The translations under genes and the position numbers were made by a program. From NCBI GenBank assembly GCA_964599405.1, contig CAZRED010000001.1, positions 218,323 through 282,322 of the forward strand: a stretch of DNA of 64,000 bases. The letters are read 5' to 3'. This DNA comes from an uncultured Candidatus Saccharibacteria bacterium. GTDB lineage: Bacteria > Patescibacteriota > UBA1384 > 2-12-FULL-50-11. Shown here in pieces: positions 9,531 through 58,089 of the stretch. Positions within the stretch are counted from its first letter, which is position 1. Each line of letters opens with the position of its first letter. Below the pieces are notes generated by a model that worked only from the letters and a program-made list of their open reading frames with translations, was not told the origin of the DNA and searched no databases.

Positions 9531-9535
9531 TAGCC

Positions 9536-10270: not shown

Positions 10271-10313
10271 CAGTCTTGATAATAAAAATATAAATTCTAC
10301 AATTCGGGGATCC

Positions 10314-10718: not shown

Positions 10719-10740
10719 GTTCTAGACCGGAATGTCCCGC
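10719..10740 (+). repeat. 22-bp direct repeat, copy 2
   Basis: Begins immediately after the TAG stop of the peptidase gene. Confidence 0.9.
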
Positions 10741-10803
10741 ATTGTTTGCTTCTAATAAATTCTCTATGTATATTCCGGTGAGACACACAGGAGGAATTCG
10801 TCT

Positions 10804-11136: not shown

Positions 11137-11219
11137 TCCGGAGCCCGAAACGATCTCAACCCGTCCTTCTGGACGGGTTATCCCTTTATTTACGGACAAT
11201 CCTAGTTCATAATCGAACT

Positions 11220-11600: not shown

Positions 11601-11606
11601 GTTCGA

Positions 11607-38786: not shown

Positions 38787-38813
38787 GTAGGTTATTCCAG
38801 GTAAAATGAAGGA

Positions 38814-41950: not shown

Positions 41951-42303
41951 TGATTGGGCGATTCTGGTTTTACTTGCCGGTATTAATTATCATCGCCGGA
42001 CTGGGCAGTTATTTGAGCTGGATTCACACTCGCCAGGACAGCGAGTTGGCGGCCATCGAGCTAGCTAGCGACAAGCAGCGTCAAGCGAGTATGGCAGTCT
42101 ATCTAGCCGCACAAACTGACGGCCGGAAAATGATTAGCTTGGCCAAGACCGTTGAAAAAACGGCTCCCGAACTGGTTGAGCCAATTGTTCTAAAGGCTTA
42201 CGAATTACTACCGAACAGCCGTGATGCTGCCATACTAGCAAGCCACTACCGGCCGGAGCTGAAAGAAAAAGTCAAAGAACTCGATCCGTTGTATCAAGAA
42301 TAA
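41947..42303 (+). CDS. small membrane-anchored hypothetical protein
   Basis: N-terminal TM (FWFYLPVLIIIAGLGSYLSWI). 4-nt overlap with valS. Confidence 0.45.
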   Translation: MMIGRFWFYLPVLIIIAGLGSYLSWIHTRQDSELAAIELASDKQRQASMAVYLAAQTDGRKMISLAKTVEKTAPELVEPIVLKAYELLPNSRDAAILASHYRPELKEKVKELDPLYQE

Positions 42304-42329
42304 AAAAGGGGTTGGCTTACGCCAACCCC
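42302..42329 (-). terminator. rho-independent terminator (GGGGTTGGC-TTAC-GCCAACCCC plus T6 on the minus strand), bidirectionally placed
   Basis: Perfect 9-bp stem with U-tract on the minus strand. Lies between convergent genes. Confidence 0.7.
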
Positions 42330-42349: not shown

Positions 42350-43135
42350 CTACAGACGAATCCTTTTTCCAGATTCAGGAAGCCTCTCACTGGGCAGTGA
42401 CGGCTTGCCGCCCAAGGGATCAAACGGGTTGATATCCGCTGGTCCCAAGTAGATTGCCCAGGGTCGAGCCGCCTCCAAGACGAGATTTGGATTGCGAGAG
42501 GCAAATTTCGTTGTTTTGCCGGTCGACAGGTCCGTCTTAGCCTCCACAAGTAGTGGGCTGTTTTGGCAGGTTGCTCGTACTATTAGCAGTGCGCTCCCGA
42601 CTGGAGCTATCACTGTAACCCCGTTCGCACTAGCACCATCGCTTGCACGAATGTCCAGCTTTTCGAGGTCGCTCACCCCGTAGAGGGAGAGAATCTCTCT
42701 CAAGCTCGGTGTCTGCTGCTGCCTCCGGCTGTAGCCGAAGCTCATTGTTAGCTGCAGAGCATTGATCTTTTCCGACCCCTTCCTTAGGGATGCCTCGTAC
42801 CTTGCGTCCCATTGACCAGCAACCTTATTGTTGTCGATCATCTGGCTGTCGTGCTCGTACCATGTATAGCTACGAAAGCCTTTTTTGTAGTCGAGCTGCA
42901 AGTATGGCGTCCCAAGCAAATCCGAGAGTTGCTCATCGGGTCGATCGATAGAAGTAAGGGCTTTGTAAAGCCTCGGGCTGTTCTTGACCCAGGTAGGGTC
43001 TCCCGAAACAGGCTCGACGATGCTGGTGGCGACCATTGAGGCCGAGACCACCGGATCGCCAGCAACTGGCATTTCTTGTGGCCGCTGGCACCCGCAGAGC
43101 ACCAGAATGGCAATGATAAGCGATACCGTTCTCAT
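42350..43135 (-). CDS. lipoprotein (lipobox VLCGC)
   Basis: MRTVSLIIAILVLCGCQ signal peptide with lipobox. Start taken at M22 of the track ORF. Confidence 0.55.
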   Translation of the reverse strand: MRTVSLIIAILVLCGCQRPQEMPVAGDPVVSASMVATSIVEPVSGDPTWVKNSPRLYKALTSIDRPDEQLSDLLGTPYLQLDYKKGFRSYTWYEHDSQMIDNNKVAGQWDARYEASLRKGSEKINALQLTMSFGYSRRQQQTPSLREILSLYGVSDLEKLDIRASDGASANGVTVIAPVGSALLIVRATCQNSPLLVEAKTDLSTGKTTKFASRNPNLVLEAARPWAIYLGPADINPFDPLGGKPSLPSERLPESGKRIRL

Positions 43136-43243
43136 TATGTGCGCACCACCTCCGTGGTGAATTGCCAACAGCATAGCACTTCCCGCCCTCCATGTCATCA
43201 GAAAGGGCTCACATTTTTACCAAGGCTGGTATGCTATAAGCAG

Positions 43244-44818
43244 ATGAGGGGAGGGTTTTTGAAAAGAGCAGGACGGGTTGTACTATTTTCGATGGCAACC
43301 CTTGTAACATTTTCGGGCGTATTCGGGCTGGCAAGCCCCGCCATGGCCATTGGTGAGCCAAAGTTTTCATACACAAGTAAGACCCTCAATCTCAGGCGAA
43401 TCAGTGAAGCTAAAGTGACGGCATCTGCTCGGTTCCAGGTCTCAGAAGATGGCGCGCCAGACGAGTTGATAGGGTACGTAACTGTTAATGTAGCCTACTC
43501 ATTCCTCTCAAAAGACGGGGTTTTTGAACGTTGGAAAGTAGCCGACGTAACTTTCACCAATCCGAAATTCGACGCTTACGGTAGCAAGCAGAATAAAAGC
43601 AAGGCAGAGGGGTCGCTGCTTGAACTCTATAATGATGACCAACAACTTGTTGCTAGGTTCGATTTCCGTACATCAGTACCTACCTTTCGTTACGTAGTTA
43701 TCAACCAGGAGCCGGCCCAGGTTGGTGGCAACCCAGTCAACCACCCAGGTGTTTTTGTTGGGGTTGCCGATGGTAACGAATTCATACCTACTACCGGCCA
43801 GGGCTCGTTGAGCGAAAAGCACCCGGTGCAGGCCTTTGCCTATGCCAGCACTAGTTCGGGTAGCATCGCTTCCATCGGCTCAATTGCCGGGGAGACATAC
43901 GTACCATACGCCAGCGTCTTCAACTACAGCCTAAAGACTGATGGTTCGGCAGGAAGCGCCGTGAGCAAGGAGCAAGCACAGGGATGGTTCTCTGGCCAAA
44001 ACCTTGGGACACTCTCTATTGAACGCTTTGAGGAAGCCGGCAACCCACCGTACATAGACCTCCCTGGCAGTACTGCTCTGCAGCGGCCGGCGCTGCGTTT
44101 TGTTTTAGCCCATATCGGCGGCGAGGGGTCCGGCTGGGTGCTTTGGGGTAATGTTGATTGGCTAATATTCGAAGCCTACTTACTGGAGGGTGGTAATGCC
44201 ACAGAAAAAGTCCCGAATATTTTCCTCGTAGCCAACGACGAGTTTCGCAAGGACTTCATTTATGACGCCGACATAACAGGAGTGAAAAAAGGAAAATACG
44301 ACCCGATCCCGGCAAATTTCGACATTAATCGCAGCCAACACGAAAAGTTACTAACCTACATCTATAACCACGTACCAAAAGACCCGGCAAAAGAAAATTG
44401 TGGCGAGGAAGCAGTGTATAGTATCGGCCCGAATAGCACCGACGATTATCGTTACGTTAACTTAGTGCCGGGCTGGGCAGATAAGTTGGCCGGGGAGTTA
44501 AACGGTAACTGCATCACAGTCCCCGCAGCAGGTTGGGCGCAGTTTTGGGGAGTAACCGTCAATAGCGCCCCCTTCACCGCCACTGCCGACGGCGGCTGTA
44601 GTGCCACTTGGATTGTTACCGGTGGCAACATCTTGGTTGGCCCTCCCGCTATCCTCAATGAGCTAGGGATTAACCCAAACGAATTAAATATGATATCGCG
44701 TGCCGCCATTTGTATATACGACTGGGTCGTTAACCCAATCGTCGACTGGGCAACAAGTGTGATTCTGTACGCGGCCGGGATTGCCCGCAGCCCGTTTAAC
44801 TTCCTCTACCATGCGTAG
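43244..44818 (+). CDS. secreted hypothetical protein, first gene of the T4SS-like operon
   Basis: Signal peptide MRGGFLKRAGRVVLFSMATLVTFSGVFGLASPAMA. Hydrophobic C-terminus. Stop overlaps the next start (ATGCGTAG). Confidence 0.55.
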   Translation: MRGGFLKRAGRVVLFSMATLVTFSGVFGLASPAMAIGEPKFSYTSKTLNLRRISEAKVTASARFQVSEDGAPDELIGYVTVNVAYSFLSKDGVFERWKVADVTFTNPKFDAYGSKQNKSKAEGSLLELYNDDQQLVARFDFRTSVPTFRYVVINQEPAQVGGNPVNHPGVFVGVADGNEFIPTTGQGSLSEKHPVQAFAYASTSSGSIASIGSIAGETYVPYASVFNYSLKTDGSAGSAVSKEQAQGWFSGQNLGTLSIERFEEAGNPPYIDLPGSTALQRPALRFVLAHIGGEGSGWVLWGNVDWLIFEAYLLEGGNATEKVPNIFLVANDEFRKDFIYDADITGVKKGKYDPIPANFDINRSQHEKLLTYIYNHVPKDPAKENCGEEAVYSIGPNSTDDYRYVNLVPGWADKLAGELNGNCITVPAAGWAQFWGVTVNSAPFTATADGGCSATWIVTGGNILVGPPAILNELGINPNELNMISRAAICIYDWVVNPIVDWATSVILYAAGIARSPFNFLYHA

Positions 44819-46970
44819 GTTGGCCTTACTGTTCCTGCTCGGCGGTAGCTTACTATTTTTCACGCCGCACTTAGACCAGGCTTCGAGCCAGTTGGGAGTT
44901 GGTTTTGTTACCTCGGCCCAAGCCCAGGACGGCGAAAAGTGCGACGACAGTTTCACGGGTACTGGGCGGAAGTGCACACTGGCCGAGCGGATTGTTGACC
45001 CCAGCGGGTTTGTCTACCCGTCTTGGGTAATTGTCAGGGGGATAATTAATATCCTCCTTATTCTGGGCCTGCTGGCAATCTCTTTCTCCAACATCACCCG
45101 AATCAATATCGACACCTACACCATCAAGAAGGCTCTGCCCAACCTATTGATTGGGATCGTCTTAGCAAACGCCAGCTTACTGATTATTCGTTATATAGCG
45201 GATATTTCCACGGTGGCAATTTACTTTTTTGTTGAGCGTTCCCCCGGCTTTGATATCGAGGGTCAAACCCTCCTGTTTCAAGATTTTATCCGCGTTGTGC
45301 TCGGAAATGTCGGAATAGGTTCATTGGTACAGATAATTAACTTAACTGGTGGCGCTGCAGCGTTTTCGGCGCCGTTAATCGTGTTGGTTTTGGGGTTAAT
45401 CCTTCTTATCGGAATGTTATGGCTGGCGTTAGTGATGTTTATTCGACTGGCCGCTATTTACCTGCTTACCATCCTCGCCCCGTTGGCGTTTGTTGCCTAC
45501 GGCATACCAGGTCAAGAAAAGTACTTTACCCAATGGTGGCAGCTTTTCACAAAATGGATGTTTATATTGCCGGCCATGACTGCCGTCTTTTGGCTGATAC
45601 TTCAAATATCCAGGCAGGGTGGGGACTCTATATTAAAGATTGCGATAATGTATATGCTCTTCTTCTTCGCGCTGGCTATTCCGTCCAAGTTTGGCGGATC
45701 TGTTATCGATAAAGCTACCACCGCTTTTAAAAAGTACAGCGGCACCGATGCCGCCGTGAAAGCATCAAAAGAATACGCAGCCCAAAAAGGTCAACAGATC
45801 GGTTATCGCATGCCGGGCGTTGCTAGATTCCAGGGTTGGAGAGAGCAGCAAAAAGCCAATGCGGAGAAAGATATTGATCAGCTGAAGCGGCGCGGCAAGG
45901 CAAAAATTCTTGCCGGCAAGACTGGGCTTAACAAGCAGAAACTAGAAGTGTTAGAGAAAGAATTGGCTAGTCAGGAATTAGAAGTGGACGCTAATCAAAG
46001 GATCAAGGCTGGGGAGCTCAGAGACCGATTTGGATTTGGGACGACTTTGGACGTCCGGGAGATTAGGGCCGACTACGCCAAGCAGAAGGCGGAAGGCCAC
46101 AGGGATGCTGAAGCGGCTAAGAAAAAACTAGAATACTTAGATGCCGGCGAAAACAAAGAAGAACTGCAAAGGGTGTTCGACAAGGTGAATGAATCTACCG
46201 TCCTTACGGGAGAAGTGGGGAAAAACGAGGGCATCGCTAAGGGTAACTTGGCTCGAGAAGAGCTGATTCTTTCTAAGCACGTTGACGACTATAAGAAGGC
46301 TAAAGAAATTTACGATCGGCTTGATAAGCAGCTGCAAAGTGGGCAGGCGCTAAGCCAAGACGACCTCGATCTTATGAATAAAAACGGCCAGGTAATGACC
46401 AAGGTTAAGGCAAACTACAACCTGATTATCGGTGGCAATATGGCCGGGCACGGGTTCTTCTCTGGCAAACACATAGAGCAGGCAGCAAATGCAGTCGGCA
46501 TAGAAAAAACTATCATTTCGGCCAAAAAAGCTCAGTCTGCCAAAGCCGTGGACGCGGGGGTTAAGGCAACGATTGAAGAGGCGCTGAAAAATGAAACCCT
46601 TGAGGAGGCACTCGCTAGTTACGAAGAAATTAAAGACAAAGACAAGCTTGTTAAAGGCGATACGCTTGGAGTGGAGATGAAGGATCAGCACAAGTTTGTG
46701 TCCCACACACAGAAGCTTGTGGCTTGGGCTGGTAAACAGAATGACCACAGGAGGGATGGCGCACTTACTGAGTTGGGGGGTATGTTAATTGACGGCAAGG
46801 GAACAGTTAACCTTAATGGAGTTGATTACATAGACAAGGACGTGTTGGCTGACGCCATAGAAGCTGCAAAGCCCGAGGATAAGAAGAGAATATTTAGAGA
46901 TATTGCAAAAAATAGCCAATTCTTAGTCGGGTCTGGCGGTTATCAAGCCGGCCACTACGAGGATAAATAA
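44811..46970 (+). CDS. VirB6/TrbL-like polytopic membrane protein with long C-terminal coiled-coil region
   Basis: Signal sequence, about 6 TM helices (residues about 80-330), then about 380 aa K/E/A-rich predicted coiled coil. Confidence 0.55.
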   Translation: MRRLALLFLLGGSLLFFTPHLDQASSQLGVGFVTSAQAQDGEKCDDSFTGTGRKCTLAERIVDPSGFVYPSWVIVRGIINILLILGLLAISFSNITRINIDTYTIKKALPNLLIGIVLANASLLIIRYIADISTVAIYFFVERSPGFDIEGQTLLFQDFIRVVLGNVGIGSLVQIINLTGGAAAFSAPLIVLVLGLILLIGMLWLALVMFIRLAAIYLLTILAPLAFVAYGIPGQEKYFTQWWQLFTKWMFILPAMTAVFWLILQISRQGGDSILKIAIMYMLFFFALAIPSKFGGSVIDKATTAFKKYSGTDAAVKASKEYAAQKGQQIGYRMPGVARFQGWREQQKANAEKDIDQLKRRGKAKILAGKTGLNKQKLEVLEKELASQELEVDANQRIKAGELRDRFGFGTTLDVREIRADYAKQKAEGHRDAEAAKKKLEYLDAGENKEELQRVFDKVNESTVLTGEVGKNEGIAKGNLAREELILSKHVDDYKKAKEIYDRLDKQLQSGQALSQDDLDLMNKNGQVMTKVKANYNLIIGGNMAGHGFFSGKHIEQAANAVGIEKTIISAKKAQSAKAVDAGVKATIEEALKNETLEEALASYEEIKDKDKLVKGDTLGVEMKDQHKFVSHTQKLVAWAGKQNDHRRDGALTELGGMLIDGKGTVNLNGVDYIDKDVLADAIEAAKPEDKKRIFRDIAKNSQFLVGSGGYQAGHYEDK

Positions 46971-46972
46971 TA

Positions 46973-47761
46973 ATGGACACGGATATCTTACTTACCGACC
47001 AAGAAGAAGGTCTCCTGGATAGCCTGGTCGCGCAGCTCTATCAAAGTGGCGCGGACATCAATGGGGCAATTAACCAGATCGATGGATTGGGAGGTAAGAA
47101 AACTGACTTATTCTCCTCGGCTATTTATAGCGTCTCCTTTCATCAGCGGGAACGCGAAGACTATGTGATCGCCTCGATTTTCGGCAAAAAAATTACGAGC
47201 TCTAATAGCAGAAAAGTAATTATGCTAGCTCTGGCAAATAACCCCACCTCTCCAGATGAAGCTCTGCGGGCACTCAATATCCCCGAGCTACCGGCAACTG
47301 CTATCGGCACAGTACAAGACCAAGAAGTTCTTAACCAGCTCGCTATCTACAAAACCGTCGAAGAGAACCTCTACAAACTGCAAACCCAATTAATCACCCG
47401 ATACAACGTGATGCCGGTGTTCCCGCTGTTGAAAAACATCCCGGCAGAAAAGTTACAAGAGATTTCAGCCGGAATCGAAAACTACATCAATTACTGCCTG
47501 GGGCTGGAAGAAAAAGTGCTATTTTCCGACCTGCCCTTACCGCCAGCCCTCGAGAAACTATTGATGGAGGTGTCGCCTAGCCTGCCAGCCTTCAAAGCCG
47601 AGTCAACACTGGAAAGAATTAACTACATGAAAGAACTTTTGGTTATCTGCAGCGTGCTAGTCGAAAATTCCGCTCGGCTTGGCCAATCACCAGACTGGGA
47701 GATAGCTGAAATCGCCGGTAAGGTGTTAGCCCTAACAAATACCCCAATCAGCTACCGTTAG
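46973..47761 (+). CDS. hypothetical cytoplasmic protein within the T4SS-like operon
   Basis: 262 aa, no TM, no motif. Confidence 0.45.
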   Translation: MDTDILLTDQEEGLLDSLVAQLYQSGADINGAINQIDGLGGKKTDLFSSAIYSVSFHQREREDYVIASIFGKKITSSNSRKVIMLALANNPTSPDEALRALNIPELPATAIGTVQDQEVLNQLAIYKTVEENLYKLQTQLITRYNVMPVFPLLKNIPAEKLQEISAGIENYINYCLGLEEKVLFSDLPLPPALEKLLMEVSPSLPAFKAESTLERINYMKELLVICSVLVENSARLGQSPDWEIAEIAGKVLALTNTPISYR

Positions 47762-47842
47762 TTCAATTGGCTGGCTAACCCGATTAAGTTACACTATTCA
47801 CTATGGAGGGGTATGCAGTTGAAAACGGTACTTTGGGGATAG

Positions 47843-48262
47843 ATGCAATTTAAAGTTCCCCAAAACATCGATATGGAGGATAAGATTATTGGGCCGCTGA
47901 CGCTGACCCAGTTCTTTTACTTGCTCTTTGGCGGGGTGATTCTCTATATTCTCTTCAACAAACTAGTACTGTCTGGTTTGTCGTTACTGTTTTGGGTGTT
48001 GGCAATTCCTATCGGGACATTCAGTTTCGCGATGGCCTTTGTGAAAATCCAAGACCGGCCGTTCCCCTCGTTCTTTTTCGCCATGTTGAAATACGCCTCG
48101 ACGCCTCGAGCTCGGGTCTGGCAGCACTACACTCGCCCCAACCAGGTCAAGCCGAAGGTTGTTGCACCGAAAGCGGCGACCCCGAAAAAATCCTTCGACA
48201 CCGTCCGGGTGAGTGAATTAGCCCAGGTGATGGATCAAGATTTGCCGAGGGCTCAAGAGTGA
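47843..48262 (+). CDS. PrgI/VirB3-like small two-TM protein
   Basis: MQFKVPQNIDMEDKIIGPLTLTQFFYLL N-terminal pattern of the PrgI family, followed by two TM helices. Immediately precedes the VirB4-like gene. Confidence 0.5.
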   Translation: MQFKVPQNIDMEDKIIGPLTLTQFFYLLFGGVILYILFNKLVLSGLSLLFWVLAIPIGTFSFAMAFVKIQDRPFPSFFFAMLKYASTPRARVWQHYTRPNQVKPKVVAPKAATPKKSFDTVRVSELAQVMDQDLPRAQE

Positions 48263-50928
48263 TGGCCAAGAAAGCCCAAAACAAACCGGTTGCTACCCAG
48301 AAGTTCCTGCAGATCGAGCGAATTCGCGACGGCATCGTTATCTTGAAAGACGGCCGGCTGCGCAAGATTGTCCGGTGTATGCCGTTAAACTTTGATTTGA
48401 AAAGTGAAAAAGAAAAAGAAGTGGCGATTTATCAGTACCAAAACTTTTTGAATTCGCTGAAGTTTCCCCTGCAAATCGTCATCCAATCGCGACGGGTGGA
48501 CTTGTCGGCCTACGTGGAAAAAGTTGAGCAGGCTTCGGCCAACGAAATTAACGAACTACTCCAAAAACAGTCGAAAGACTACCTGGAATTCATCAAAATT
48601 CTAAGCGAACAGGTTAATATCATGGAGAAGTCTTTCTATATGATTGTCGGCCATACGGTGAAAGGAGCGGTAGAGCGCCAGACCTTCGTGGACAAAATCC
48701 TGGGGAAAAAGCGAATTGGTCTGACCGATGTGACCGACAAAGACTTTGCTGAATACAAAACAGTCTTGAGTGAACGGACCCGCACCGTCGCTGGCCGACT
48801 GAATTCGCTGGGCATCCAAACCCATGAACTAGACACCCGGGAAATTATTGAGCTGTTTTACAACTCCTATAACCCCGAGGAATCCTTCACTCAACACTTA
48901 GCCGACCCCGAACAAGTAACGGCTCCTGTGGTACAAAAAGGGCAGGATTTGCTGAAAAAAGCCGGGATTTCAGAGCTGTTACCGCCAGCGACTAACCCGC
49001 CAGCGGCAGCTGCGCCGGCTGGCGCTGGCGAGGTTAAGATTGACCAAGCGGCGGCGGCCGATATTGGCAACGAAGCCAAAACAATGCGCAAAACCACCGT
49101 TTCCCAAATTTTCAACCGGCTCGGCATTAAAGCCACCGACGCCGAAAACACCGAAGCGGTTCTGCGCCAGGGTATCGCCAGTGTGCTGGACGTGATTGCC
49201 CCGGGAGGCATGAATATCACCCCCAACTACGTGCAGCTAGGCAGCTACTATCTCCGCACTCTTTTTGTTTACACCTACCCGCGCTATCTCCAGGCCAACT
49301 GGCTCTCGCCGATTATCAATTATGACACCACGCTCGATTTAGGAATGTTTATCTACCCAATCGAAACCAATATTTTGGTCGGGCAGTTGCGCCGGAAAAC
49401 TACCCAATTACAGTCCAGCTTACAGATTGAGTCCGAAAAAGGGCTGGTTCGAAACCCGGAGCTGGAGACAGCCGTTGGCGATATCGAAGAGCTACGTGAC
49501 ACTCTTCAAAAAGGGGAAACCCGCCTGTTCCAGATGGGGCTCTACTTCACCATATACGCTAGTACGATCGACGAGCTTAATAAACTTTCCAAACAGTTCG
49601 AGTCAATCCTTGGCGGGCAGTTAATCTACACCAAGCAAGCCCTCTTACAAATGGAGCAAGGCTTCAACGCCACTATGCCGCTGCTCGACGACCAGATGGA
49701 TATCGTCCGCAATCTCGACACCGCTTCGCTCTCCACCACCTTCCCCTTCACCTCGGCCGAACTATCGCACCACGACGGTGTGCTCTACGGCATCAACTTG
49801 CACAATAGCTCACTGGTATTGTTTGACCGCTTCCGCATGGAGAACGCCAATCAGGTGGTTTTTGCCAAATCTGGCGCCGGTAAATCTTACGCCGTTAAGC
49901 TAGAAGTAATCCGTTCCTTGATGCTCGGCTCCGAAGTAATTGTGATTGACCCAGAAAACGAGTATCGCACCCTCGCTCAAGCCGTTGGCGGCACCTACGT
50001 TGACCTGTCGCTGAACTCCACCCAGAAAATTAACCCGTTTGATCTACCGAAATACCGCGAAGACTCTGGCGAAACCGGTGAACAGTTGCTGCGCAGCACT
50101 GTCGTGGCCGTTCACGGTCTGGTGAGCCTGATGGCTGGCAGTCTTAACCCCGAGGAAGACAACTTGCTCGACAAGGCCCTTTACGAAACCTACGCCCTGC
50201 GTGACATCACCACCGACCCAGCCAGCCACGCCAACACCCCGCCAACCATGAGCGATTTGGTAACAGTGCTCCAAAACATGAGCAGCACGGAGTCGCTGGT
50301 TAATCGCCTCGCCAAATACACCGACGGTAGTTTTGCCGGTTTGTTTAACTCCCAGACTAACATTGATATGAACAATAAAGTCACCGTTTTCTCGATCCGC
50401 GACATGGAAGACGAGCTCCGACCAATCGGCATGTACATGGCCTTGAACTACATCTGGGCACGGGTGAAAAGTGATTTGCGCAAACGAATGATGGTAATCG
50501 ACGAGGGCTGGGTGCTGATGCGCTACGAGGACTCGGCCAAATTTGTGAACGCCATCGCCAAACGAGCCCGCAAATACTACTTGGGTCTGACAGTGATTAG
50601 TCAAGACGTTGAAGATTTCTTGGGCTCCAGTTACGGCCGATCGGTAGTTAGCAACTCTTCAACCCAACTATTACTTGGCCAGTCGACCACGGCTATCGAT
50701 AAAATTGCCGAAGTTTTCAAACTGACCGATGGCGAGAAGTTTTTCTTAACCGAGGCGGAAGTCGGCCAGGGCTTGTTCTTTGCCGGTAATAACCGGGCAG
50801 CCATTCAAATTGTTTCGTCTTATACCGAAGATCAAATTATTACCACCGATCCGAAACAGCTGCTGGAGCTCTACGGCATTGGTGGGCAGTCCACTCCGCC
50901 CGAAGTGAATACGCCGCCAAATGGCTGA
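48259..50928 (+). CDS. VirB4-like T4SS ATPase (PrgJ/TrsE/CagE family)
   Basis: 889 aa. Walker A FAKSGAGKSYAVK in the C-terminal half, Walker B MMVIDEGW. N-terminal VirB4-type domain. Confidence 0.85.
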   Translation: MMAKKAQNKPVATQKFLQIERIRDGIVILKDGRLRKIVRCMPLNFDLKSEKEKEVAIYQYQNFLNSLKFPLQIVIQSRRVDLSAYVEKVEQASANEINELLQKQSKDYLEFIKILSEQVNIMEKSFYMIVGHTVKGAVERQTFVDKILGKKRIGLTDVTDKDFAEYKTVLSERTRTVAGRLNSLGIQTHELDTREIIELFYNSYNPEESFTQHLADPEQVTAPVVQKGQDLLKKAGISELLPPATNPPAAAAPAGAGEVKIDQAAAADIGNEAKTMRKTTVSQIFNRLGIKATDAENTEAVLRQGIASVLDVIAPGGMNITPNYVQLGSYYLRTLFVYTYPRYLQANWLSPIINYDTTLDLGMFIYPIETNILVGQLRRKTTQLQSSLQIESEKGLVRNPELETAVGDIEELRDTLQKGETRLFQMGLYFTIYASTIDELNKLSKQFESILGGQLIYTKQALLQMEQGFNATMPLLDDQMDIVRNLDTASLSTTFPFTSAELSHHDGVLYGINLHNSSLVLFDRFRMENANQVVFAKSGAGKSYAVKLEVIRSLMLGSEVIVIDPENEYRTLAQAVGGTYVDLSLNSTQKINPFDLPKYREDSGETGEQLLRSTVVAVHGLVSLMAGSLNPEEDNLLDKALYETYALRDITTDPASHANTPPTMSDLVTVLQNMSSTESLVNRLAKYTDGSFAGLFNSQTNIDMNNKVTVFSIRDMEDELRPIGMYMALNYIWARVKSDLRKRMMVIDEGWVLMRYEDSAKFVNAIAKRARKYYLGLTVISQDVEDFLGSSYGRSVVSNSSTQLLLGQSTTAIDKIAEVFKLTDGEKFFLTEAEVGQGLFFAGNNRAAIQIVSSYTEDQIITTDPKQLLELYGIGGQSTPPEVNTPPNG

Positions 50929-52225
50929 GCCGGCGTTGCAACTCCCCGACGACGATATTGAACCGGTCGAACCAAGCGACCCTGATGTTTTATACATGCC
51001 CGGCGCCGAACCGCCGCCGGAGTCTGTTGCTGACGATGGCCAAACCATTGATGCCCGCCCACAAATTAACGAACGTCTTGAGCAGCAGAAGCGCGCTAAA
51101 GCCCAAAGCGAAGTAGAAAAAGTAAAATCCGGCGAACAGAAACTGAAAAAAGCGACCAGCACACCGACAGCGGGCAAGTCCAAGTTCGGAGAGGCGGCCG
51201 CCGGTGCGGCACTGTCTGGCGGCGGAGACAAAGAAGACCGAAAAGAAAGAGCCAAAGAAGCCTTGAAAGAAGAGGCTAAACAACAAGCCAAGCAGTACGC
51301 GAAACAAATCGCTCGTCAGGCGGGTGCGACGATAAAGAAAGCGGCTGTTGAGGCTATCGCCGCCACCTCAGAGTTCTGGGTTCCTGCGCTGGTTATCATT
51401 CTAATTATCATTGCAATTGTCGCCATTATCTTTGTCCTCTTCTCCTTTGACGGTGACGGCGGCAAAGGCCCCGCCCAGTACCCGGAAACAGCCCTGCAGC
51501 GCCAGCACTCCAACTTTTTACTGGCAATTTCAGGCGATAAAATTGCGAGCGATGTGGCAGTCAAAGAAGTGATCGACAGCGAGCTCGAGCGCTACGATCG
51601 GATTAAGACCAACGCCGACCGTTTCAACCCCGACCTGTCAACTACCATTGCCGCCAAGAAAATTGAACTGGACGGCAAGCTGATGGGGCTGCTAATTGAA
51701 AAAAGTGTCGATCGGCGCAAAGTCTTGCGCGACCAATTCCAAGGGGAGATGCGGGCGTTTGAAGCCACGCTGCCGTTTGGCAGCTGGATTGCGGCGTTGG
51801 CCGAAGAGCGGGTAGGCCAGCCCAATCTGCAATTCTGTTCGATTACTGGCGCCACCGCTAAGGTAGCCTGCGCATCGTTTACGTCCACTATTATGTACCT
51901 GGCCGGCGTGCCCAATGCCATCGTTGGCAATACGACCGAAGTTTGGAACAACAGCGCTCTAAAAGTAGTGATCGATCGCAGCCCCGCCCCCACGGCAGGG
52001 CAGTACGACCCTGCCAAGCTTCAGCCCGGCGATATTATCTGGTGGGGCAATGGCAGCTGCAGCAGCGTCAAGTACTCTGGTAAGCTCTTTGACCACGTTG
52101 GTTTTTATGTTGGTAACGGCATGGCGATAGACACCAGCTCCAGCCGCGAAACGGTCGAAAAGCGCTCGGCGCCGCGTCGTGATAGCTGCCGGCTATTTAA
52201 CGGGGCTAAAAGGTACGGAAGATGA
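50921..52225 (+). CDS. membrane-anchored NlpC/P60 (CHAP-like) peptidoglycan hydrolase
   Basis: Acidic N-terminus, K/E-rich segment, TM (VPALVIILIIIAIVAIIFVLF). C-terminal FCSITG (Cys) and HVGFYVGNGMAID (His box) motifs. Confidence 0.55.
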   Translation: MAEPALQLPDDDIEPVEPSDPDVLYMPGAEPPPESVADDGQTIDARPQINERLEQQKRAKAQSEVEKVKSGEQKLKKATSTPTAGKSKFGEAAAGAALSGGGDKEDRKERAKEALKEEAKQQAKQYAKQIARQAGATIKKAAVEAIAATSEFWVPALVIILIIIAIVAIIFVLFSFDGDGGKGPAQYPETALQRQHSNFLLAISGDKIASDVAVKEVIDSELERYDRIKTNADRFNPDLSTTIAAKKIELDGKLMGLLIEKSVDRRKVLRDQFQGEMRAFEATLPFGSWIAALAEERVGQPNLQFCSITGATAKVACASFTSTIMYLAGVPNAIVGNTTEVWNNSALKVVIDRSPAPTAGQYDPAKLQPGDIIWWGNGSCSSVKYSGKLFDHVGFYVGNGMAIDTSSSRETVEKRSAPRRDSCRLFNGAKRYGR

Positions 52226-55200
52226 CAAATAAAAAAGTCTTTCAGCTATTGGCAGCAACGTTTCTGGGCCTGTTGATTGTTGCCCAACCGCTCTTTGTCG
52301 TTGGCCAGTGGCGGTTTGACCGAATCCAAGCTCAACAAGACGACGGCGTTGAGCCCGACAATACCAACGTTTCCCCGGAAGACCAGCTTGGCGACGCCTC
52401 CCCAATCGATTCGCTCGAAGAGCTCGATCCGGTACTGCTAACTAGCCCCGCCCTGACCATTGCCCCGCAAGACGCTAACAATATCCGTGAAGGCCGGGTG
52501 GACGTGCGGGTAACCGACTACTTAATTTACTTAATTACCCCCGTCGAGAAGGGTGGTGGTGGCTTTAAACACATTAAGACGCAACGAATTTTGAAGAACT
52601 ACGACACCGACGGCGTCGGCCGTTTTGATCGGGAAACCCTAGCCGCTATCGATGAAGACGGCTCGGTAATCTCGGCCCACAACGACGGCCAGGCGGTGGA
52701 CGTTTCAGAAGTTGGGGCGATTACCTGCAAAATGGTTGAGCGACGCTATTTGGGCGGCTCAACTACCAAGTGGCAACGCCCCAAACCAATCAAAGTGGCC
52801 TGGCAGAGCCGTGACGGCATCCGCCGCAACCCTACCCCGAAAGGACCAAGCCTCTTTGAGGTCGCTAACACCATGACCGCCCAAAGCATCCTGATGATGC
52901 TTAACGAGTCCGGCGAGATGGACGACTTTGCCGACTACGTCAAAGGGCTCTCGATGGGAGAAATCTTTCGCTACGTCGGCGCTAATATCCTGTTGAAAAA
53001 TTACGGCGCTGGCGATATCCAAATCGACCCACTTTCGCACGATGTTCCGGAGATTCTCGGGGCGCTGTTGTTGCAACGCTCACTCCCCGACTTGCCAACC
53101 AACCTACCAATTGCCGACGGCGATCAAGACATTCGGATTGCGGTCGCTCGCGCCCAAATAGAAGAATTGCTCAACTTGCCGGCCGGCTCGCTACGCGGTT
53201 TCGGCTGGGACGCTATTCTAGCCAGTACCGGCAAGCGAACTTTAGAAAATGCTTTGGGGCTCCCAACGCTAACCTTTGACAAGAAATCACTCGAGGAGGC
53301 TTTGGGTAACGATGCTGTTCAAGCCGCCCTTAAAGAATTCGCTCGCAGCGATCAATCGTTTGGAGTAATGGACGGTACCGTTGGCCTAATCCAGGCCAAA
53401 GATAACCGTGGCTTTGTGTGGGCCGGCGTTAATTTGCTGGCCGATGCTCTACGTTTAAGCCCCGAGCAGCGCCAAGCATTAGTGGCTGCCGTTAAAGCCA
53501 ACCAACAGCCGACAATTCAGCTAGAGACGGTCGGCGCCGACCAAGCTGTCCCCATCGATGTGCTGACCTCGATGTTTGTGGCTAGCGGCAACGAAACCCA
53601 GATACTAAAAGATTTTGGCCAGCGCTACCTTAGCCAAGTGCTCTCCAAGGCCGTGCCCAATCAGCTGTTGGGGCTGACTCGCGAGGTTTTGGGCGACTTA
53701 GCTAACTCTGACAGCAATGTTAAATACGGCGACCTGCGCCGCAGCATGGGGGTACGCAAAATTGCTTCGGACAGCTCGGTTTCCGTTGAAAATGCTGACA
53801 ACTTGGACGGCGGCGCCGGCAACAGCCGCTACTACGGCGAAATCGCCGAAGCCCTTAATGCCCAGCTCGACCTGTCGGTACAGACAATCGGCGCTGGCGA
53901 TATTACAGCGATGCTCCGCGGTGACAACTCAGGGTTACTGGCCAAGGTTGGCGGTAACCAGGCCGATAAAGCCCTCGGTTGGTATAACGGCACGGGCTAC
54001 GCCATTATCAACGGCGACAAAACTTTTGAGCAGGGTCTGAACGAAATCTTCAGCAACTCGTTAACCCAGCTAGTTGGCCTGCCGGCGGGTGTGGAGGTCA
54101 GCTTAGAAGGCGATCTCTACCGTAACTACGGTAACGCTCTGGCCGAAAACCGGCTGGGCTTTGCCTTAACGGAAGGCGGCTCGGCTACCGACATCAACCC
54201 CCAGACGCTTTATCAAGGCTTTGGACTGCGGGAAAGCCGGGGCTTGGCCGAACTGCGAGCCGATAACGCTTACTGGCAACGCGCCGACGTTATCGACGCC
54301 CTGGAGTTTTCCGATATTCGGCTGGGTGTGGCCCTAGGCAGTAGTGCTGCTTACCTGCGTGGCCAGAGCGATAACAACGCCTTTTCGCGCCTAGCCGCCC
54401 AAGGCAACTTATCAACCATTACCCGCGACAAAATTCTTAACTACCTAGACCTCGAAGACAACTACAAGTTAAGCAACGACGAGCTAAATGTTATCGTCGA
54501 CACCCTCGGCAACTGGGACAGCGCTGACGTTACCGCCCAGCAGCGGGTGCTTAGCTTGGGTCTAAAACTAATCGGCGTCACCCTCGACCAGCGAACAACG
54601 TTCGAAAAAGGAGCGATTCTCAATATTGCCCAGAGCCAAAATAGTGCCGAGCTAGTTGACCGACTGATTGAGCAAGGAGTCCGGCAGTTGGCCGGAGCTT
54701 TGGGAGTCAACGTCGCCAGCTTTGAAACGGCTGACTACAAGATACTTACCACCCTGCTAACCGATGCTTACAACGGCTCGCTGGCCGGCAGTACCGGTGC
54801 CTACGGCTATACCGCTGAAAACTTGCTAGTTAAATGGCTGACCGACGCTACCGGTATTCCGGTAGTCACCGACGTCCGGACTTTCATCGACGGTAACGTC
54901 CGAACTGGCCTCGAATCCTGGTCGGCCGCCCAGATGGTGAAGTTCGCCAATACCTACCTGCCCGGCGAAGTGCAGCTCACCTACGACGAGCTGCGTAATG
55001 CCATTAATTTAACCGACAGCGCGTTAATTAACGCCCGGGCTAGTGAGATTGCCGCCAGCAGCGGCGGGGTGGTGGCGGACTACGTCGACCAGGCTCGTCG
55101 GGAACTGATGCAGCAGTTCCGCGACAACGGCAAATACAAAATTTCCGACGCCTTTTTGCGCCAAGCCGAGATCCCGGTACCGGCTAACTTTTCGAAAGTG

Positions 55201-56502
55201 ATGTTCTCCGGAACCAATCAAGAACGTTCTGAAATGCTAACTAGCTCGTTGTTTGCTTTCCTCGATAACGAACTGCGCAAAATTAACCCCAACTACACTT
55301 CGGGCACGCTCGAGCGTTTGTATAACGGCGAAATCGGTGTCGGACAGATGGACCAGCTGGTTATCAACATTGTCAGCGGCCAGGCCGGGTCGCTTGGCGG
55401 GTTATCTACCAGCTTCCTCGGCAGCTTCTACTCGTTTATCTCTTCCCCGGATAAAACCGCCTTCTTCACCGACGATCGCTATCAAGACATGTGGGGAACG
55501 ATGGAGAACTGGTTTGGCAATAATCTTGGCATCTCGGGGCTACCGCCGGGCTTTGCTAAATCGGTGTACTACGCCTCACAGAACGATTGGAATTTCGACG
55601 CCTCAATTATCGAAAATGGCCAAGTATTAGTGCCCTCCATCAACCAAATTGGTAGTGATTTGCTGGCCAATCGCATAACCCAATGGGCTGACTCAACAAT
55701 GGGCTTACCGGCCGGATCGGCCTATCAATTATATCGGGCCGTCAACGCCATTGGTGCTGCCTCGCGGGCTTTGGCCGCTGCCAGGGCGGTCGGCGACGCC
55801 AGCCAAATCACCCAAGCCCAAAGTGGTTTGAGCACGGCCCAAGCTACCCTGGCCACCATCGCAATAACTATCGCCTTAAACGCCTGCGCGGCCTGCCAGC
55901 AGTTCTTTGCTTCAGTAGACCAAGCCCTGGCCGCCCCGCCCGGCTTTACCAATGCGGCAGTTGCTGGCGCCATTGCGATGGCTTTTGGCCTGGGGCCAGC
56001 TGGCTTAATTGCTGCGGCGGCAATTTACTTATTTGGCGTCTACAAGGTTGATTACCTCTGCCCCATGCCGCCTCCCGATCGGTTTGCCTATCCGCAGTTC
56101 GACAATCCCCAAGACGCTCTAGCGCCGTCGGACAGTAGCTACTACGCCGACCCGGCAGTAGTAGTAAAAGATAGCCCAGCACCAGGCCAGAACAAATTCG
56201 ATTGGGACGACGGCGTACCGTTTAAAGACGCCAATAACCCCGAGCTGTGGATGGCCTGGAGTCGCTACTTCACCGGCAAGCTGCTTGACGCCACTATGAG
56301 CTATGGCGCGAGCGTTGATGGCGCCGGCAAACCGCTGCAGGTAATTACCTACCGTCAGGCCAACGTCGAGTTCTTTGCACCGCGCGCCGCTGCCACATTT
56401 GGTCCGAGCGAGGCCGGCAACGATCGGCTGGGCCTAGGCTTCACCCAGGCTTCCACTAAAACCACCGACTGGGTGCATGCCGCCTTTGGAGGGTTTTTCT
56501 AA
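52222..56502 (+). CDS. giant secreted/surface protein (1426 aa), possible peptidase M15-like motif near N-terminus
   Basis: Signal peptide. SAHNDGQAVDV resembles the VanY/M15 S-x-H-x-x-G-x-A-x-D zinc motif. Hydrophobic C-terminal segment. Confidence 0.55.
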   Translation: MTNKKVFQLLAATFLGLLIVAQPLFVVGQWRFDRIQAQQDDGVEPDNTNVSPEDQLGDASPIDSLEELDPVLLTSPALTIAPQDANNIREGRVDVRVTDYLIYLITPVEKGGGGFKHIKTQRILKNYDTDGVGRFDRETLAAIDEDGSVISAHNDGQAVDVSEVGAITCKMVERRYLGGSTTKWQRPKPIKVAWQSRDGIRRNPTPKGPSLFEVANTMTAQSILMMLNESGEMDDFADYVKGLSMGEIFRYVGANILLKNYGAGDIQIDPLSHDVPEILGALLLQRSLPDLPTNLPIADGDQDIRIAVARAQIEELLNLPAGSLRGFGWDAILASTGKRTLENALGLPTLTFDKKSLEEALGNDAVQAALKEFARSDQSFGVMDGTVGLIQAKDNRGFVWAGVNLLADALRLSPEQRQALVAAVKANQQPTIQLETVGADQAVPIDVLTSMFVASGNETQILKDFGQRYLSQVLSKAVPNQLLGLTREVLGDLANSDSNVKYGDLRRSMGVRKIASDSSVSVENADNLDGGAGNSRYYGEIAEALNAQLDLSVQTIGAGDITAMLRGDNSGLLAKVGGNQADKALGWYNGTGYAIINGDKTFEQGLNEIFSNSLTQLVGLPAGVEVSLEGDLYRNYGNALAENRLGFALTEGGSATDINPQTLYQGFGLRESRGLAELRADNAYWQRADVIDALEFSDIRLGVALGSSAAYLRGQSDNNAFSRLAAQGNLSTITRDKILNYLDLEDNYKLSNDELNVIVDTLGNWDSADVTAQQRVLSLGLKLIGVTLDQRTTFEKGAILNIAQSQNSAELVDRLIEQGVRQLAGALGVNVASFETADYKILTTLLTDAYNGSLAGSTGAYGYTAENLLVKWLTDATGIPVVTDVRTFIDGNVRTGLESWSAAQMVKFANTYLPGEVQLTYDELRNAINLTDSALINARASEIAASSGGVVADYVDQARRELMQQFRDNGKYKISDAFLRQAEIPVPANFSKVMFSGTNQERSEMLTSSLFAFLDNELRKINPNYTSGTLERLYNGEIGVGQMDQLVINIVSGQAGSLGGLSTSFLGSFYSFISSPDKTAFFTDDRYQDMWGTMENWFGNNLGISGLPPGFAKSVYYASQNDWNFDASIIENGQVLVPSINQIGSDLLANRITQWADSTMGLPAGSAYQLYRAVNAIGAASRALAAARAVGDASQITQAQSGLSTAQATLATIAITIALNACAACQQFFASVDQALAAPPGFTNAAVAGAIAMAFGLGPAGLIAAAAIYLFGVYKVDYLCPMPPPDRFAYPQFDNPQDALAPSDSSYYADPAVVVKDSPAPGQNKFDWDDGVPFKDANNPELWMAWSRYFTGKLLDATMSYGASVDGAGKPLQVITYRQANVEFFAPRAAATFGPSEAGNDRLGLGFTQASTKTTDWVHAAFGGFF

Positions 56503-57233
56503 TGCGCCAGAAACGTCCAGGAATCTCGGCGGTAATTGTGATTGTCGCGGCACTGGTGATTATTCTCGGAATAATCGTTTTCCCGATTATTATTGTTGGA
56601 ACTTACTTAGGGGGAGGGCTGGATAAAGCAACGGGTGCGGTTGGGGCAACGCTAACCAGTAGCGAGTGTATCACCCCGCTCTATCCACCCGTGGCTGACG
56701 AGCAGAAATTCGCCGCCGCCATCGACACTTACGTCGCCAAACTAACCCCGAGCTCTCCATTTGTGGGCATGGGAAAGGTGTTCGTTGATGCTGGTAAAAG
56801 TTACGGCATTAATCCGGCCTGGGTGGTCAATATTGCCCGAAAAGAATCGTCGTTCGGCATTCACATACCACCAAACTCCAATAATGCTTTCGGCCGAACC
56901 GCCACATCAGAGCAGCCCGGCGTTGAGCTCAGCGGTCGCAAGTGGTATCGATACGACTCTTTTGAAGCTAGCATCCCCGTCCAAACCGAATATCTAAAAA
57001 GACGCTATATCGACCAAGGCCTAGTGACGATCGAGACCATTACTAACGTTTATGCTCCGCCGTCAGAAAACAGCACCGGCACGTATATCGAACAGATGAA
57101 GGAATGGATTGGTAGAGTGATGGCTCTGGCTGGTAACGGGGTTACTTGCCCAGGTTCGGCGGTCGTGGCAATTAAGGCAGCGCCGACAATTTTGTTGGCT
57201 GGTATATTGAAAGGGAGTATTAATGAAAAATAA
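56502..57233 (+). CDS. membrane-anchored glucosaminidase-like (FlgJ-type) peptidoglycan hydrolase
   Basis: N-terminal TM. ARKESSFG ... NNAFG ... YRYDSFEASI pattern of the mannosyl-glycoprotein endo-beta-N-acetylglucosaminidase domain. Confidence 0.55.
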   Translation: MRQKRPGISAVIVIVAALVIILGIIVFPIIIVGTYLGGGLDKATGAVGATLTSSECITPLYPPVADEQKFAAAIDTYVAKLTPSSPFVGMGKVFVDAGKSYGINPAWVVNIARKESSFGIHIPPNSNNAFGRTATSEQPGVELSGRKWYRYDSFEASIPVQTEYLKRRYIDQGLVTIETITNVYAPPSENSTGTYIEQMKEWIGRVMALAGNGVTCPGSAVVAIKAAPTILLAGILKGSINEK

Positions 57234-57819
57234 GTTCCTCCTGTATGGTTTGATAGCTGTCGCCCTAGTTGTAGCCTTCTTCATCTATCGCTCGACCCTT
57301 TTCCGGCTGATTGATACTAACCCCAAGCGCAACACTACTGACATGGCAATTAGCGCCCCGGTTCAGTTTGTTTTCTCAAAAGAAGTGGCCGCAACCGACA
57401 GCTTAACCATTGAAATTAGCCCACCCCAAGACGGTACAATCGCGGTTGCCGGAAAAACAGTGACCGTTCAAACCGGCCTGAAATATTACACCGACTATAC
57501 TATTACCCTGAAAAGCGTCTCCAGTGTTGGAGGCAAGAAAATTGACAGCGTTTCGGTTCGTTTTGTTACTGGCGGATTGGATCTGGCCGGAGTTGAGAAG
57601 CGCAACCAGCTCTTATCAACGCTCCCCTACACCGAAGAGCGTTTCTCGGTTGATTACACCGTCGGTAACCGAGTATTTACGGTGCAAGTTTTTAGCGAAC
57701 CGGTTGAAGACGTAAAACGAGCCGCCTTAGAGTTTCTGGGTCAGCACGGCGTTACCGAAGCCACCGATAAGATTGAATTTTATATCGTACCTAGCGTCTC
57801 CGGCCAGGCTGGCCCGTAG
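57223..57819 (+). CDS. membrane-anchored hypothetical protein, last gene of the operon
   Basis: N-terminal TM, beta-rich remainder. Confidence 0.45.
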   Translation: MKNKFLLYGLIAVALVVAFFIYRSTLFRLIDTNPKRNTTDMAISAPVQFVFSKEVAATDSLTIEISPPQDGTIAVAGKTVTVQTGLKYYTDYTITLKSVSSVGGKKIDSVSVRFVTGGLDLAGVEKRNQLLSTLPYTEERFSVDYTVGNRVFTVQVFSEPVEDVKRAALEFLGQHGVTEATDKIEFYIVPSVSGQAGP

Positions 57820-58089
57820 CTATCGAGATATTTTTATCCTAATTGTGTAGCCGTGGCCCTTACCGGCCATATCGACCAGCTCGGCGTAGAGCCGGGGTCG
57901 GCGCAGTTTAAAGAAAGTGGCCTGGGCGTTGCTGGCGCAGTGGAGGGTGATAATTTGGCCGCGTACACTGACCCGCGGGGCGTCGCTGTGAATGGTTTTG
58001 AGCTTTTTTTGAAACTGCGCTGATAGATAAATGCGCTGCAAATAATCCCGTCCCCCGCCGCTAAGGATATTTTTGATCGGTTCGATCAT
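57820..58089 (-). CDS. DUF721/DciA-like protein downstream of recF
   Basis: 89 aa. Conserved recF-DUF721 synteny. 4-nt overlap with recF. Confidence 0.55.
   Translation of the reverse strand: MIEPIKNILSGGGRDYLQRIYLSAQFQKKLKTIHSDAPRVSVRGQIITLHCASNAQATFFKLRRPRLYAELVDMAGKGHGYTIRIKISR

Follow-up and report, generated by a model that had tools for sequence, protein, structure and literature searches.

Nine co-directional genes on the plus strand (43244-57819) form a compact cluster within the 64-kb stretch of contig CAZRED010000001.1 that was analysed here, referred to below as the window. All nine open reading frames (ORFs), named O1 to O9 (Table 1), were located at the coordinates given by a first-pass annotation of this DNA, which had described a run of contiguous, overlapping genes. 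Seven of the eight junctions were tight. Overlaps of 8 bp occurred at O1/O2 (start codon of O2, ATG 44811) and O5/O6, of 4 bp at O6/O7, of 1 bp at O7/O8, of 11 bp at O8/O9, and of 4 bp (GTG 48259) or 1 bp (ATG 48262) at O4/O5, and O2 and O3 were separated by 2 bp. The sole loose junction was the 81-bp gap between O3 and O4, ahead of the PrgI-like gene. The locus almost certainly encodes a monoderm-type, chromosomal and non-conjugative type IV secretion system (T4SS) of Patescibacteria, derived from the MPF-FATA class, to which its VirB4 was assigned by profile scores and not by phylogeny.

The same gene order was found in at least ten public assemblies, from Berkelbacteria-like Patescibacteria (loci L001, L002, L004, L005, L012, L016, L017, L018, L020 and L021). 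Because the junctions are tight and the order recurs in these independent assemblies, the arrangement is far beyond what chance would produce. Two public contigs, one from Logan (SRR6868922) and one from NCBI, also carry genes identical to those of the locus. Public gene calls place the start of the VirB4 gene at ATG 48262 and that of the VirB6-like gene at 44892 (692 amino acids, aa). A promoter and terminator scan returned promoter-like sites at chance level only, and its only convincing hairpin lay 5' of the locus. The earlier description of a minimal Gram-positive-type T4SS resembling the loci of Saccharibacteria, and not a conjugation module, was borne out by profiles, synteny and the missing conjugation genes.

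Table 1. Coordinates of the T4SS locus, its neighbours and other features of the window, with predicted products
Feature	Position	Strand	Description
O1	43244..44818	+	524 aa, secreted
O2	44811..46970	+	VirB6/TrbL-type polytopic membrane protein ("extended VirB6") with charged C-terminal tail
O3	46973..47761	+	262 aa, without transmembrane segment or signal peptide
O4	47843..48262	+	PrgI/VirB3-like, two transmembrane segments
O5	48259..50928	+	Full-length VirB4 ATPase, MPF-FATA/CD1110 type, 889 aa
O6	50921..52225	+	Membrane-anchored NlpC/P60-type (CHAP-like) cysteine peptidase
O7	52222..56502	+	1426 aa, membrane-anchored, mostly extracellular, all-alpha
O8	56502..57233	+	Membrane-anchored GH73/lysozyme-like glycosidase, 243 aa
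O9	57223..57819	+	198 aa, exported or anchored, Ig-like (Big_5) domain
118-aa gene	41947-42303	+	Single-transmembrane protein, overlapping the leuS stop codon
Hairpin	42308-42329		Strong hairpin after the 118-aa gene
282-aa gene	42350-43198	-	Divergent, lipoprotein-like signal (LVLCGC)
89-aa gene	57820-58089	-	Basic protein, between recF and the locus
Mur ligase and FemAB-family transferase	36505-38930	-	Close upstream of the locus
Retroelement cassette	5162-8002		Diversity-generating retroelement in a low-GC stretch
Reverse transcriptase	5162-6184	-	RVT_1, 4e-23
bAvd-like accessory gene	6038-6658	+	1.8e-20
Repeat, first copy	6599-6716		118 nt, 85% identical pair
Repeat, second copy	7150-7267		As above
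ORF with variable repeat copy	7145-8002	-	No Pfam family
ORFs beside the retroelement	399-5172		DUF2254 membrane protein, two proteins without family match

The membrane core and its partner proteins

O5 passed the cut-off of the NCBIfam family conju_CD1110 (369.4 bits; cut-off 325) and also matched the Pfam families P-loop_TraG (3.2e-25) and AAA_10. Both Walker motifs were present (A, AKSGAGKS at residue 536; B, MMVIDE at residue 744), and the previous call of a VirB4-like ATPase was thereby upheld. A weak NCBIfam match to TrsD covered residues 20-106, and PF26593 (TraC-like) is recorded for a public protein identical to O5, which thus appears to be a full-length VirB4 with a fused TraC/TrsD-like N-terminal domain. 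In more distant Patescibacteria (loci L007-L011 and L013), the N-terminal third of VirB4 is encoded by a separate ORF, in contrast to the single protein here. Homologues with 60-94% identity were found in metagenome-assembled genomes labelled Patescibacteria group bacterium or Candidatus Berkelbacteria, and a few in Saccharimonadales, whereas the closest plasmid homologues were CD1110-family proteins of Bacillales with 29-36% identity. The labels of the closest VirB4 and giant-protein homologues point to a host lineage among Berkelbacteria-like Patescibacteria rather than Saccharibacteria.

Two further core components were recognised. O4, described previously as a PrgI/VirB3-like protein with two transmembrane (TM) segments, formed the corresponding hairpin and matched Pfam PrgI clearly above its cut-off (7.3e-12; 46.1 bits versus 27). 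O2 contained six to seven hydrophobic segments followed by a C-terminal tail of 419 aa, of which 34% were K, R, E or D. Public records assign PF19590 (TrbL_3) to P0178 of locus L015, which is identical to O2 (this entry being marked as weak), and to 37 of 51 homologues; they support the assignment of O2 as a VirB6/TrbL-like polytopic protein. The K/R-rich stretch after the last TM segment suggests that the tail may be cytoplasmic.

O1 carried a cleavable-looking signal peptide ending in AMA and one N-terminal hydrophobic segment, in agreement with its description as a secreted protein, and matched no Pfam or NCBIfam family. In L002, L017 and L020, a single reading frame encodes a region homologous to O1 together with the VirB6-like protein (1276-1303 aa, with TrbL_3), and the two were separate genes in the window, L001, L012, L016 and L021. 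Because of these fusions, O1 would be functionally tied to the VirB6 channel protein, and it probably represents the extracellular N-domain partner of that protein, encoded by a gene of its own.

In O3, called a cytoplasmic protein before, no hydrophobic segment was indeed detected. An exhaustive HMMER search of 1.84 billion proteins yielded a family of 30 representatives of about 256-272 aa, except for one member of 1669 aa (P0245), with no Pfam family common to the members and no significant PDB match. A gene of similar size occupied the O3 position in all relatives, with identities ranging from 46% to undetectable, and O3 therefore appears to be lineage-specific.

The giant protein and the cell-wall hydrolases

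The largest product of the locus, O7, begins with a signal anchor and a domain bearing an LAS-like H-x6-D motif, continues with a helical region of about 800 aa, and ends with a conserved hydrophobic hairpin (about residues 1195-1270) and a conserved 140-aa alpha/beta domain. According to the predicted topology, both ends, which flank the hairpin, lie outside the membrane. About 55 full-length homologues were found, all from the same Berkelbacteria-like clade and none with a Pfam domain. Their conservation was concentrated in the N-terminal domain (about 80-215), scattered positions in the middle, the hairpin and the C-terminal domain. A moderately confident AlphaFold2 model consisted mostly of a long all-alpha region (predicted local distance difference test scores of 85-94 at about 540-840), with an alpha/beta domain on its N-terminal side and, on its C-terminal side, membrane helices and then a small alpha/beta domain. 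Confidence in the N-terminal domain was low exactly around the motif SAHNDGQAVD.

This motif, at residues 151-160, accounts for the possible M15/VanY zinc site that had been proposed for O7. S-x-H-x-x-G-x-A-x-D is the hallmark motif of LAS/M15 peptidases, and S151, H153, G156, A158 and D160 were invariant among 19 homologues. However, a third zinc-binding histidine was absent about 30-50 residues downstream, where an invariant K-V-A-W-Q-S occupied the expected position, and a conserved W-x-H was found only at the extreme C-terminus (D-W-V-H). With hhalign, the motif was aligned to SYHTKGQAMD of Escherichia coli MepK over only 20 columns and with 6.5% probability. The C-terminal domain, in which H-x6-D is lacking, contained a strand (KPLQVITYRQ) that aligned weakly with KPVQLISGYR of MepK (1% probability). 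Neither a recognisable LAS fold or profile match nor any Pfam or NCBIfam family or fold relative was detected for O7. The motif of the proposed site is thus conserved, whereas its third histidine and any profile or fold backing are missing, and the M15 assignment drawn from the motif is unproven. A transitive M15 link via the giant proteins of Saccharibacteria failed, those proteins also being without Pfam hits.

One such protein, the 1508-aa giant of the Saccharibacteria T4SS locus L011, shares the motif domain with O7 at 29% identity and also the C-terminal domain, W-x-H included. Because both end domains are shared, the O7 family seems to reach beyond its clade in diverged form. It is conceivable, though we regard it as improbable, that O7 is an extracellular conduit or stalk that replaces the VirB2 pilus in a pilin-less lineage and whose two ends jointly form one LAS-type metallopeptidase site; the MepK matches of the two ends are without statistical support.

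Two other features of O7 were observed. A conserved loop at about 120-140 (K-N-Y-D-T-D-G-V-G-R-F-D-R-E-T-L) resembles an EF-hand-type calcium-binding loop, with calmodulin as its sole PDB profile match (E 0.023, not significant). In the central region, a motif of the type (L/I)G(L/V)P-x-G (for example LGLPTL, VGLPAGV and MGLPAGS) occurs about 7 times, compared with about 3.4 times in shuffled sequence. Its presence in the L011 giant as well suggests a possible helical repeat unit.

The cysteine peptidase candidate O6 contained a charged N-terminal segment followed by a TM segment at 156-174. Its matches to CHAP and NLPC_P60 (both 2e-3) stayed below the Pfam cut-offs. The match to PDB entry 4xcm spanned the DHVG(F/I)Y histidine motif, and Cys317 and His392 were found as candidate catalytic residues in the expected motifs. 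Moreover, the L012 homologue (48% identity over 299 aa) passes NLPC_P60 with 28.3 bits (cut-off 23). The proposed NlpC/P60-like nature of O6 is therefore backed by its TM anchor, its candidate residues and this homologue, but not by the score of O6 itself. In relatives, the slot after VirB4 is filled by proteins with NlpC/P60-like or C39_2 domains.

For O8, the Pfam Glucosaminidase match (3.6e-6, 28.1 bits) fell just below the cut-off of 30.2, and an NCBIfam peptidoglycan hydrolase match (1.5e-6) reached 27.7 bits against a cut-off of 500. O8 also matched LytB-type glucosaminidases in the PDB (E-value 8.5e-4). E115 in its KESSFG aligned with the glutamate of the E-S-x-x-G motif (ESNWG in the LytB type) and was invariant among positional homologues. 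The PDB match and the kept catalytic-type glutamate bear out the view of O8 as a TM-anchored, glucosaminidase-like hydrolase. It retains only the anchor and the lysozyme-like domain, whereas its positional homologues of 386-432 aa carry extra domains: C39_2 in L001, L002, L017 and L021, C39_2 and SLT_2 in L020, M23 in L012 and L016, and SLT and M23 in L018. O8 thus appears to have lost a C-terminal C39_2 domain that is found in relatives. A module swap was considered for O8 and rejected, since alignment revealed the glycosidase domain to be common to the relatives and only C39_2 to be missing from the window protein.

O9 had been listed simply as a small TM protein. The N-terminal hydrophobic anchor was confirmed, but the description was incomplete, as an immunoglobulin (Ig)-like Big_5 domain was also detected (25.3 bits; Pfam cut-off 23.6). 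Genes of the same size occupied the O9 position in relatives, with undetectable sequence similarity. With regard to the three cell-wall hydrolase modules originally counted in the locus, two were retained (O6 and O8), whereas the M15 module of O7 was unsupported.

A Mur ligase and a FemAB-family transferase are encoded close upstream of the locus; therefore, the organism probably makes peptidoglycan with interpeptide bridges. Such a bridged wall would bear on the substrate of the locus hydrolases in the cell's own wall.

Chromosomal setting and divergence among relatives

The locus is preceded by tsaD, leuS, a conserved 118-aa gene and a divergent lipoprotein-like gene. Downstream and convergent to it lie an 89-aa gene, recF, dnaN and dnaA, followed by rnpA, yidC and two tRNAs. 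The complete order from tsaD, leuS and the 118-aa gene through the T4SS genes to the 89-aa gene, recF, dnaN and dnaA was found in eight of the related loci (L001, L002, L005, L012, L016, L017, L020 and L021), and the leuS-to-dnaN arrangement in L001/L005, L002/L017, L004/L012, L016, L018, L020 and L021. The position of the locus between leuS and recF-dnaN-dnaA was fixed although RecF was only 42-81% identical among those genomes. In addition, the guanine-cytosine (GC) content of the locus (0.47-0.55) equalled that of neighbouring DNA. No boundary of a mobile element (integrase, repeats or GC shift) was detected at the locus, and the flanks were conserved housekeeping genes in all relatives. 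The locus thus appears to be chromosomal and vertically inherited.

Pfam scans of window ORFs of at least 110 aa detected no relaxase, VirD4 or VirB11, as had been noted before; they returned just an FtsK, a housekeeping protein with a gamma domain. VirB2-like pilins were likewise absent from the 64 kb, which were scanned for small ORFs with a signal peptide and a two-TM hairpin, PrgI being the sole hairpin, and T4SS_pilin gave no hit in the 10-kb flanks of L001, L002, L016-L018, L020 and L021.

The genes of the locus differed greatly in their divergence from L021, the nearest relative, and L020. The identities to VirB4 (94% and 92%, respectively) and PrgI (97% and 84%) exceeded those to RecF (80% and 81%). 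Lower values were obtained for O7 (73% and 79%), O6 (64% and 57%), O2 (47% and 31%), O3 (46% and 22%) and O1 (28% and 35%). For O8, the similarity was confined to the N-terminus in L021 (42%) and to the first 58 aa in L020 (64%), and for O9, none was detectable in either. Meanwhile, O1 was closer to that of L001 (45%) although the VirB4 of L001 was more distant (90%), and O3 was undetectable in comparison with L001. The pattern suggests a conserved motor amid fast-evolving exposed parts and is seemingly not congruent with the VirB4 tree. The motor would be under strong constraint, and the exposed parts might diversify quickly, as expected of parts that meet host surfaces. Similarly, the turnover of hydrolase domains and the hypervariable exposed proteins fit adaptation to different host surfaces but do not prove it.

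Among the flanking genes, the 118-aa protein was 41-75% identical and directly 3' of leuS in all relatives having the locus, with no family match. The 282-aa lipoprotein-like protein shared 23-27% identity with its positional counterparts. At this position, L002 and L017 have two such genes and an XRE-type helix-turn-helix gene, possibly encoding a regulator of the operon. The 89-aa gene, which leaves no spacer to the stop codon of O9, was 52-73% identical in close relatives and had no Pfam family. In L001, a PhdYeFM/ParE toxin-antitoxin pair (2668-3191), absent from the window, was inserted between leuS and a 117-aa gene, and a 23S_rRNA_IVP-family gene was found at the same spot in L016.

Most of the other larger ORFs in the window encode housekeeping proteins, such as FtsK, RecA, RecX, polynucleotide phosphorylase, RNase J, DNA polymerase I, the Mur ligase and FemAB, and a few had no family match. 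A diversity-generating retroelement cassette was found far upstream of the locus (Table 1). At every mismatch within the reported copies of its two repeats, the first copy had T on the plus strand (A on the minus strand) and the second copy another base; the variable copy lies at the 3' end of a minus-strand ORF. The GC content was 0.40-0.46 at 1-6000 and 8000-12000, in comparison with 0.50-0.55 in the remaining window, and the region around the retroelement may be foreign or variable.

Function of the locus and comparison with known systems

The locus probably encodes a non-conjugating T4SS that exchanges macromolecules at the interface between epibiont and host, with export favoured over import at much lower confidence. 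In such a machine, VirB4 docked on PrgI and the VirB6-like O2 would constitute the cytoplasmic-membrane translocon, and the secreted O1 would cap the VirB6 channel, forming its outer face. The tethered hydrolases O6 and O8, together with the giant O7, would open and span the cell wall or walls. VirB4 would then power the passage of macromolecules, most likely proteins, between epibiont and host.

Several observations weigh against this proposal. The substrate, effector and direction of transport are not readable from sequence, and reviews state that the role of the Patescibacteria T4SS is completely unknown, both effector delivery and nucleic-acid uptake having been proposed. The hydrolases could equally act on the cell's own wall, opening it in the manner of VirB1-type enzymes, a host-wall target being suggested by domain turnover. 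The absence of a coupling protein and of pilins refers to 64 kb, and their genes could lie elsewhere in the genome; in most Patescibacteria, VirD4-like genes are far from virB4 (PMC12102498). Moreover, profile scans with Pfam and NCBIfam returned no VirB8-like protein (NTF2 fold, PrgL/TcpC type), and TrbL_3 was absent from the local hmmscan lists for O2 and three homologues. Finally, O3 evolves fast yet has neither a signal peptide nor a TM segment, which does not fit the notion that the exposed parts are those that evolve fast.

The most serious alternative, which we nevertheless consider unlikely, is an uptake device like Helicobacter pylori ComB or archaeal Ced, importing nucleic acids or other macromolecules of the host and feeding an organism unable to make nucleotides. 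Like ComB, the gene set is without relaxase and coupling protein, and uptake was proposed in a review since competence is dispensable but the T4SS essential in S. epibionticum. Additionally, a 2026 preprint on another cultivated parasitic bacterium describes RNA feeding, together with tubular structures where parasite and host meet. However, no nucleic-acid-binding or nuclease component was detected in the locus with Pfam and NCBIfam, and the weak NCBIfam match of VirB4 to CedB (2.7e-7, far below the cut-off) reflects only the common ATPase fold; no feature of the sequence gives a direction. A self-directed envelope apparatus that only assembles the cell's own surface components (O7, O1 and the Ig-like O9) for adhesion or wall remodelling, with no intercellular transfer, would agree with the predominance of anchored envelope proteins, the lack of an evident effector-like or substrate gene, and the fact that adhesion functions are essential too in S. 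epibionticum. We judge it quite unlikely: the VirB3/4/6 core was more conserved than RecF and thereby speaks for an active translocation motor, and the surface proteins should need no VirB4-powered channel because all have Sec-type signals or anchors.

It is very improbable that the locus is a conjugative or ex-conjugative element (an integrative and conjugative element, ICE) with its relaxase and VirD4 genes beyond the limits of the window. The affiliation of VirB4 with the CD1110 family of conjugation ATPases, its nearest relatives outside Patescibacteria being on Firmicutes plasmids, would suit such an origin, as would the 109 relaxases counted among Patescibacteria genomes (PMC12102498). 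Only 15 of these 109 are near virB4, however (PMC12102498), and no relaxase or type IV coupling protein was found in the 43 kb before or the 6 kb after the locus. The fixed position beside leuS and recF-dnaN-dnaA in genomes with such divergent RecF, and the lack of integrase, repeats or a GC shift, also speak against an ICE.

Exchange at the epibiont-host interface, the reading preferred here, concerns a system that is essential in the one species tested and present in Patescibacteria, which account for much of the uncultivated diversity of bacteria. The locus leaves the general picture of the T4SS unchanged and supplies comparative handles, including a version without an adjacent pilin array and a clade-restricted giant ectoprotein that has no fold relative and shares its end domains with giants of Saccharibacteria. 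Further handles are the recurrent fusion and fission of a secreted protein with VirB6, and a conserved motor combined with exposed parts that evolve very fast and non-congruently and with hydrolase domains that change. These lineage features point to components that probably meet the host and could guide mutagenesis in cultivable Saccharibacteria.

Like the conjugative MPF-FATA systems of Firmicutes (CD1110-family VirB4; PrgH-I-J-K of pCF10), the locus encodes a VirB6-like protein, a VirB3-like protein, VirB4 and then a large cell-wall hydrolase. The Firmicutes systems, however, are located on plasmids or ICEs and normally depend on a relaxase and on VirD4/TcpA as coupling protein, none of which applies here. 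The nearest plasmid VirB4 (36% identity; L022) is split and encoded in a compact cluster on a Pontibacillus sp. megaplasmid (NZ_CP062975.1, 351801-361354). A 1051-aa DD-metalloendopeptidase follows it, and the cluster further contains a pilin-like gene and genes for a 780-aa protein and two small proteins. The megaplasmid is typed as non-mobilizable, and the cluster adjoins flagellar genes; unlike the locus in the window, it has a pilin-like gene. The H. pylori ComB DNA-uptake T4SS, cited in the field as an import precedent, also works without relaxase or VirD4, but it belongs to a diderm and includes VirB7/9/10 components, and the comparison made here is one of gene content.

The closest described counterpart is that of Candidatus Southlakia epibionticum ML1 (Wang et al. 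2023), in which SEML1_0004-0013 were essential for epibiotic growth in transposon sequencing, except SEML1_0012 (NTF2-like) (PMC10633639). Compared by gene order and published description, not by sequence alignment, the order and the position next to recF-dnaN-dnaA match SEML1_0004-0013, in accordance with the resemblance to Saccharibacteria loci noted earlier. The Southlakia region (SEML1_0004-0019) likewise adjoins dnaA-dnaN-recF and is convergent with recF, and no relaxase or coupling protein lies within its cluster. It encodes an exported Ig/PEGA-like protein (SEML1_0005), of which O9 is the positional counterpart, a protein with two lysozyme-like domains and a cysteine proteinase (SEML1_0006), a 1114-aa hypothetical protein with a DD-peptidase-like domain (SEML1_0007), VirB4 in two parts (SEML1_0008 and SEML1_0009), PrgI (SEML1_0010) and VirB6/T4SS-like proteins with long tails (SEML1_0011 and SEML1_0013) (PMC10633639). 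The shared order is therefore Ig-like protein, lysozyme-type hydrolase, giant of more than 1100 aa, VirB4, PrgI and VirB6-like protein with a long tail. Southlakia differs from the window in that six VirB2-like pilins are encoded in an essential array next to the other genes, VirB4 is split between SEML1_0009 and SEML1_0008, the cysteine-peptidase domain is fused to the lysozyme protein instead of being encoded by a separate gene upstream of the giant, and an NTF2-like (VirB8-like) gene is present, whereas no such gene was recognised in the window. For O1 and O3, no Southlakia counterpart is stated.

In the survey of Quinonero-Coronel et al. (2025), a Patescibacteria VirB4 clade nested in MPF-FATA was found in 2417 of 3035 genomes, the T4SS was often near dnaA/dnaN/rnpA, relaxases were rare and mostly located away from virB4, and non-canonical hydrolases replaced VirB1 (PMC12102498). 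VirB2-like pilin genes or arrays near virB4 have been reported for many, not all, classes. The locus agrees with the surveyed systems in its MPF-FATA-related VirB4 with a TrsD-like N-terminal module, the presence of PrgI and VirB6 near virB4, the proximity to dnaA/dnaN/rnpA, the lack of a relaxase, and the non-canonical hydrolases in place of VirB1. "Berkelbacteria" is not a word in the survey's main text (PMC12102498). The 1426-aa family, O1, O3, the O1-VirB6 fusions of the relatives and the turnover of hydrolase domains are not described there. Because the system itself has already been described (PMC10633639; PMC12102498), the locus adds lineage-specific details to a known T4SS rather than a new one.

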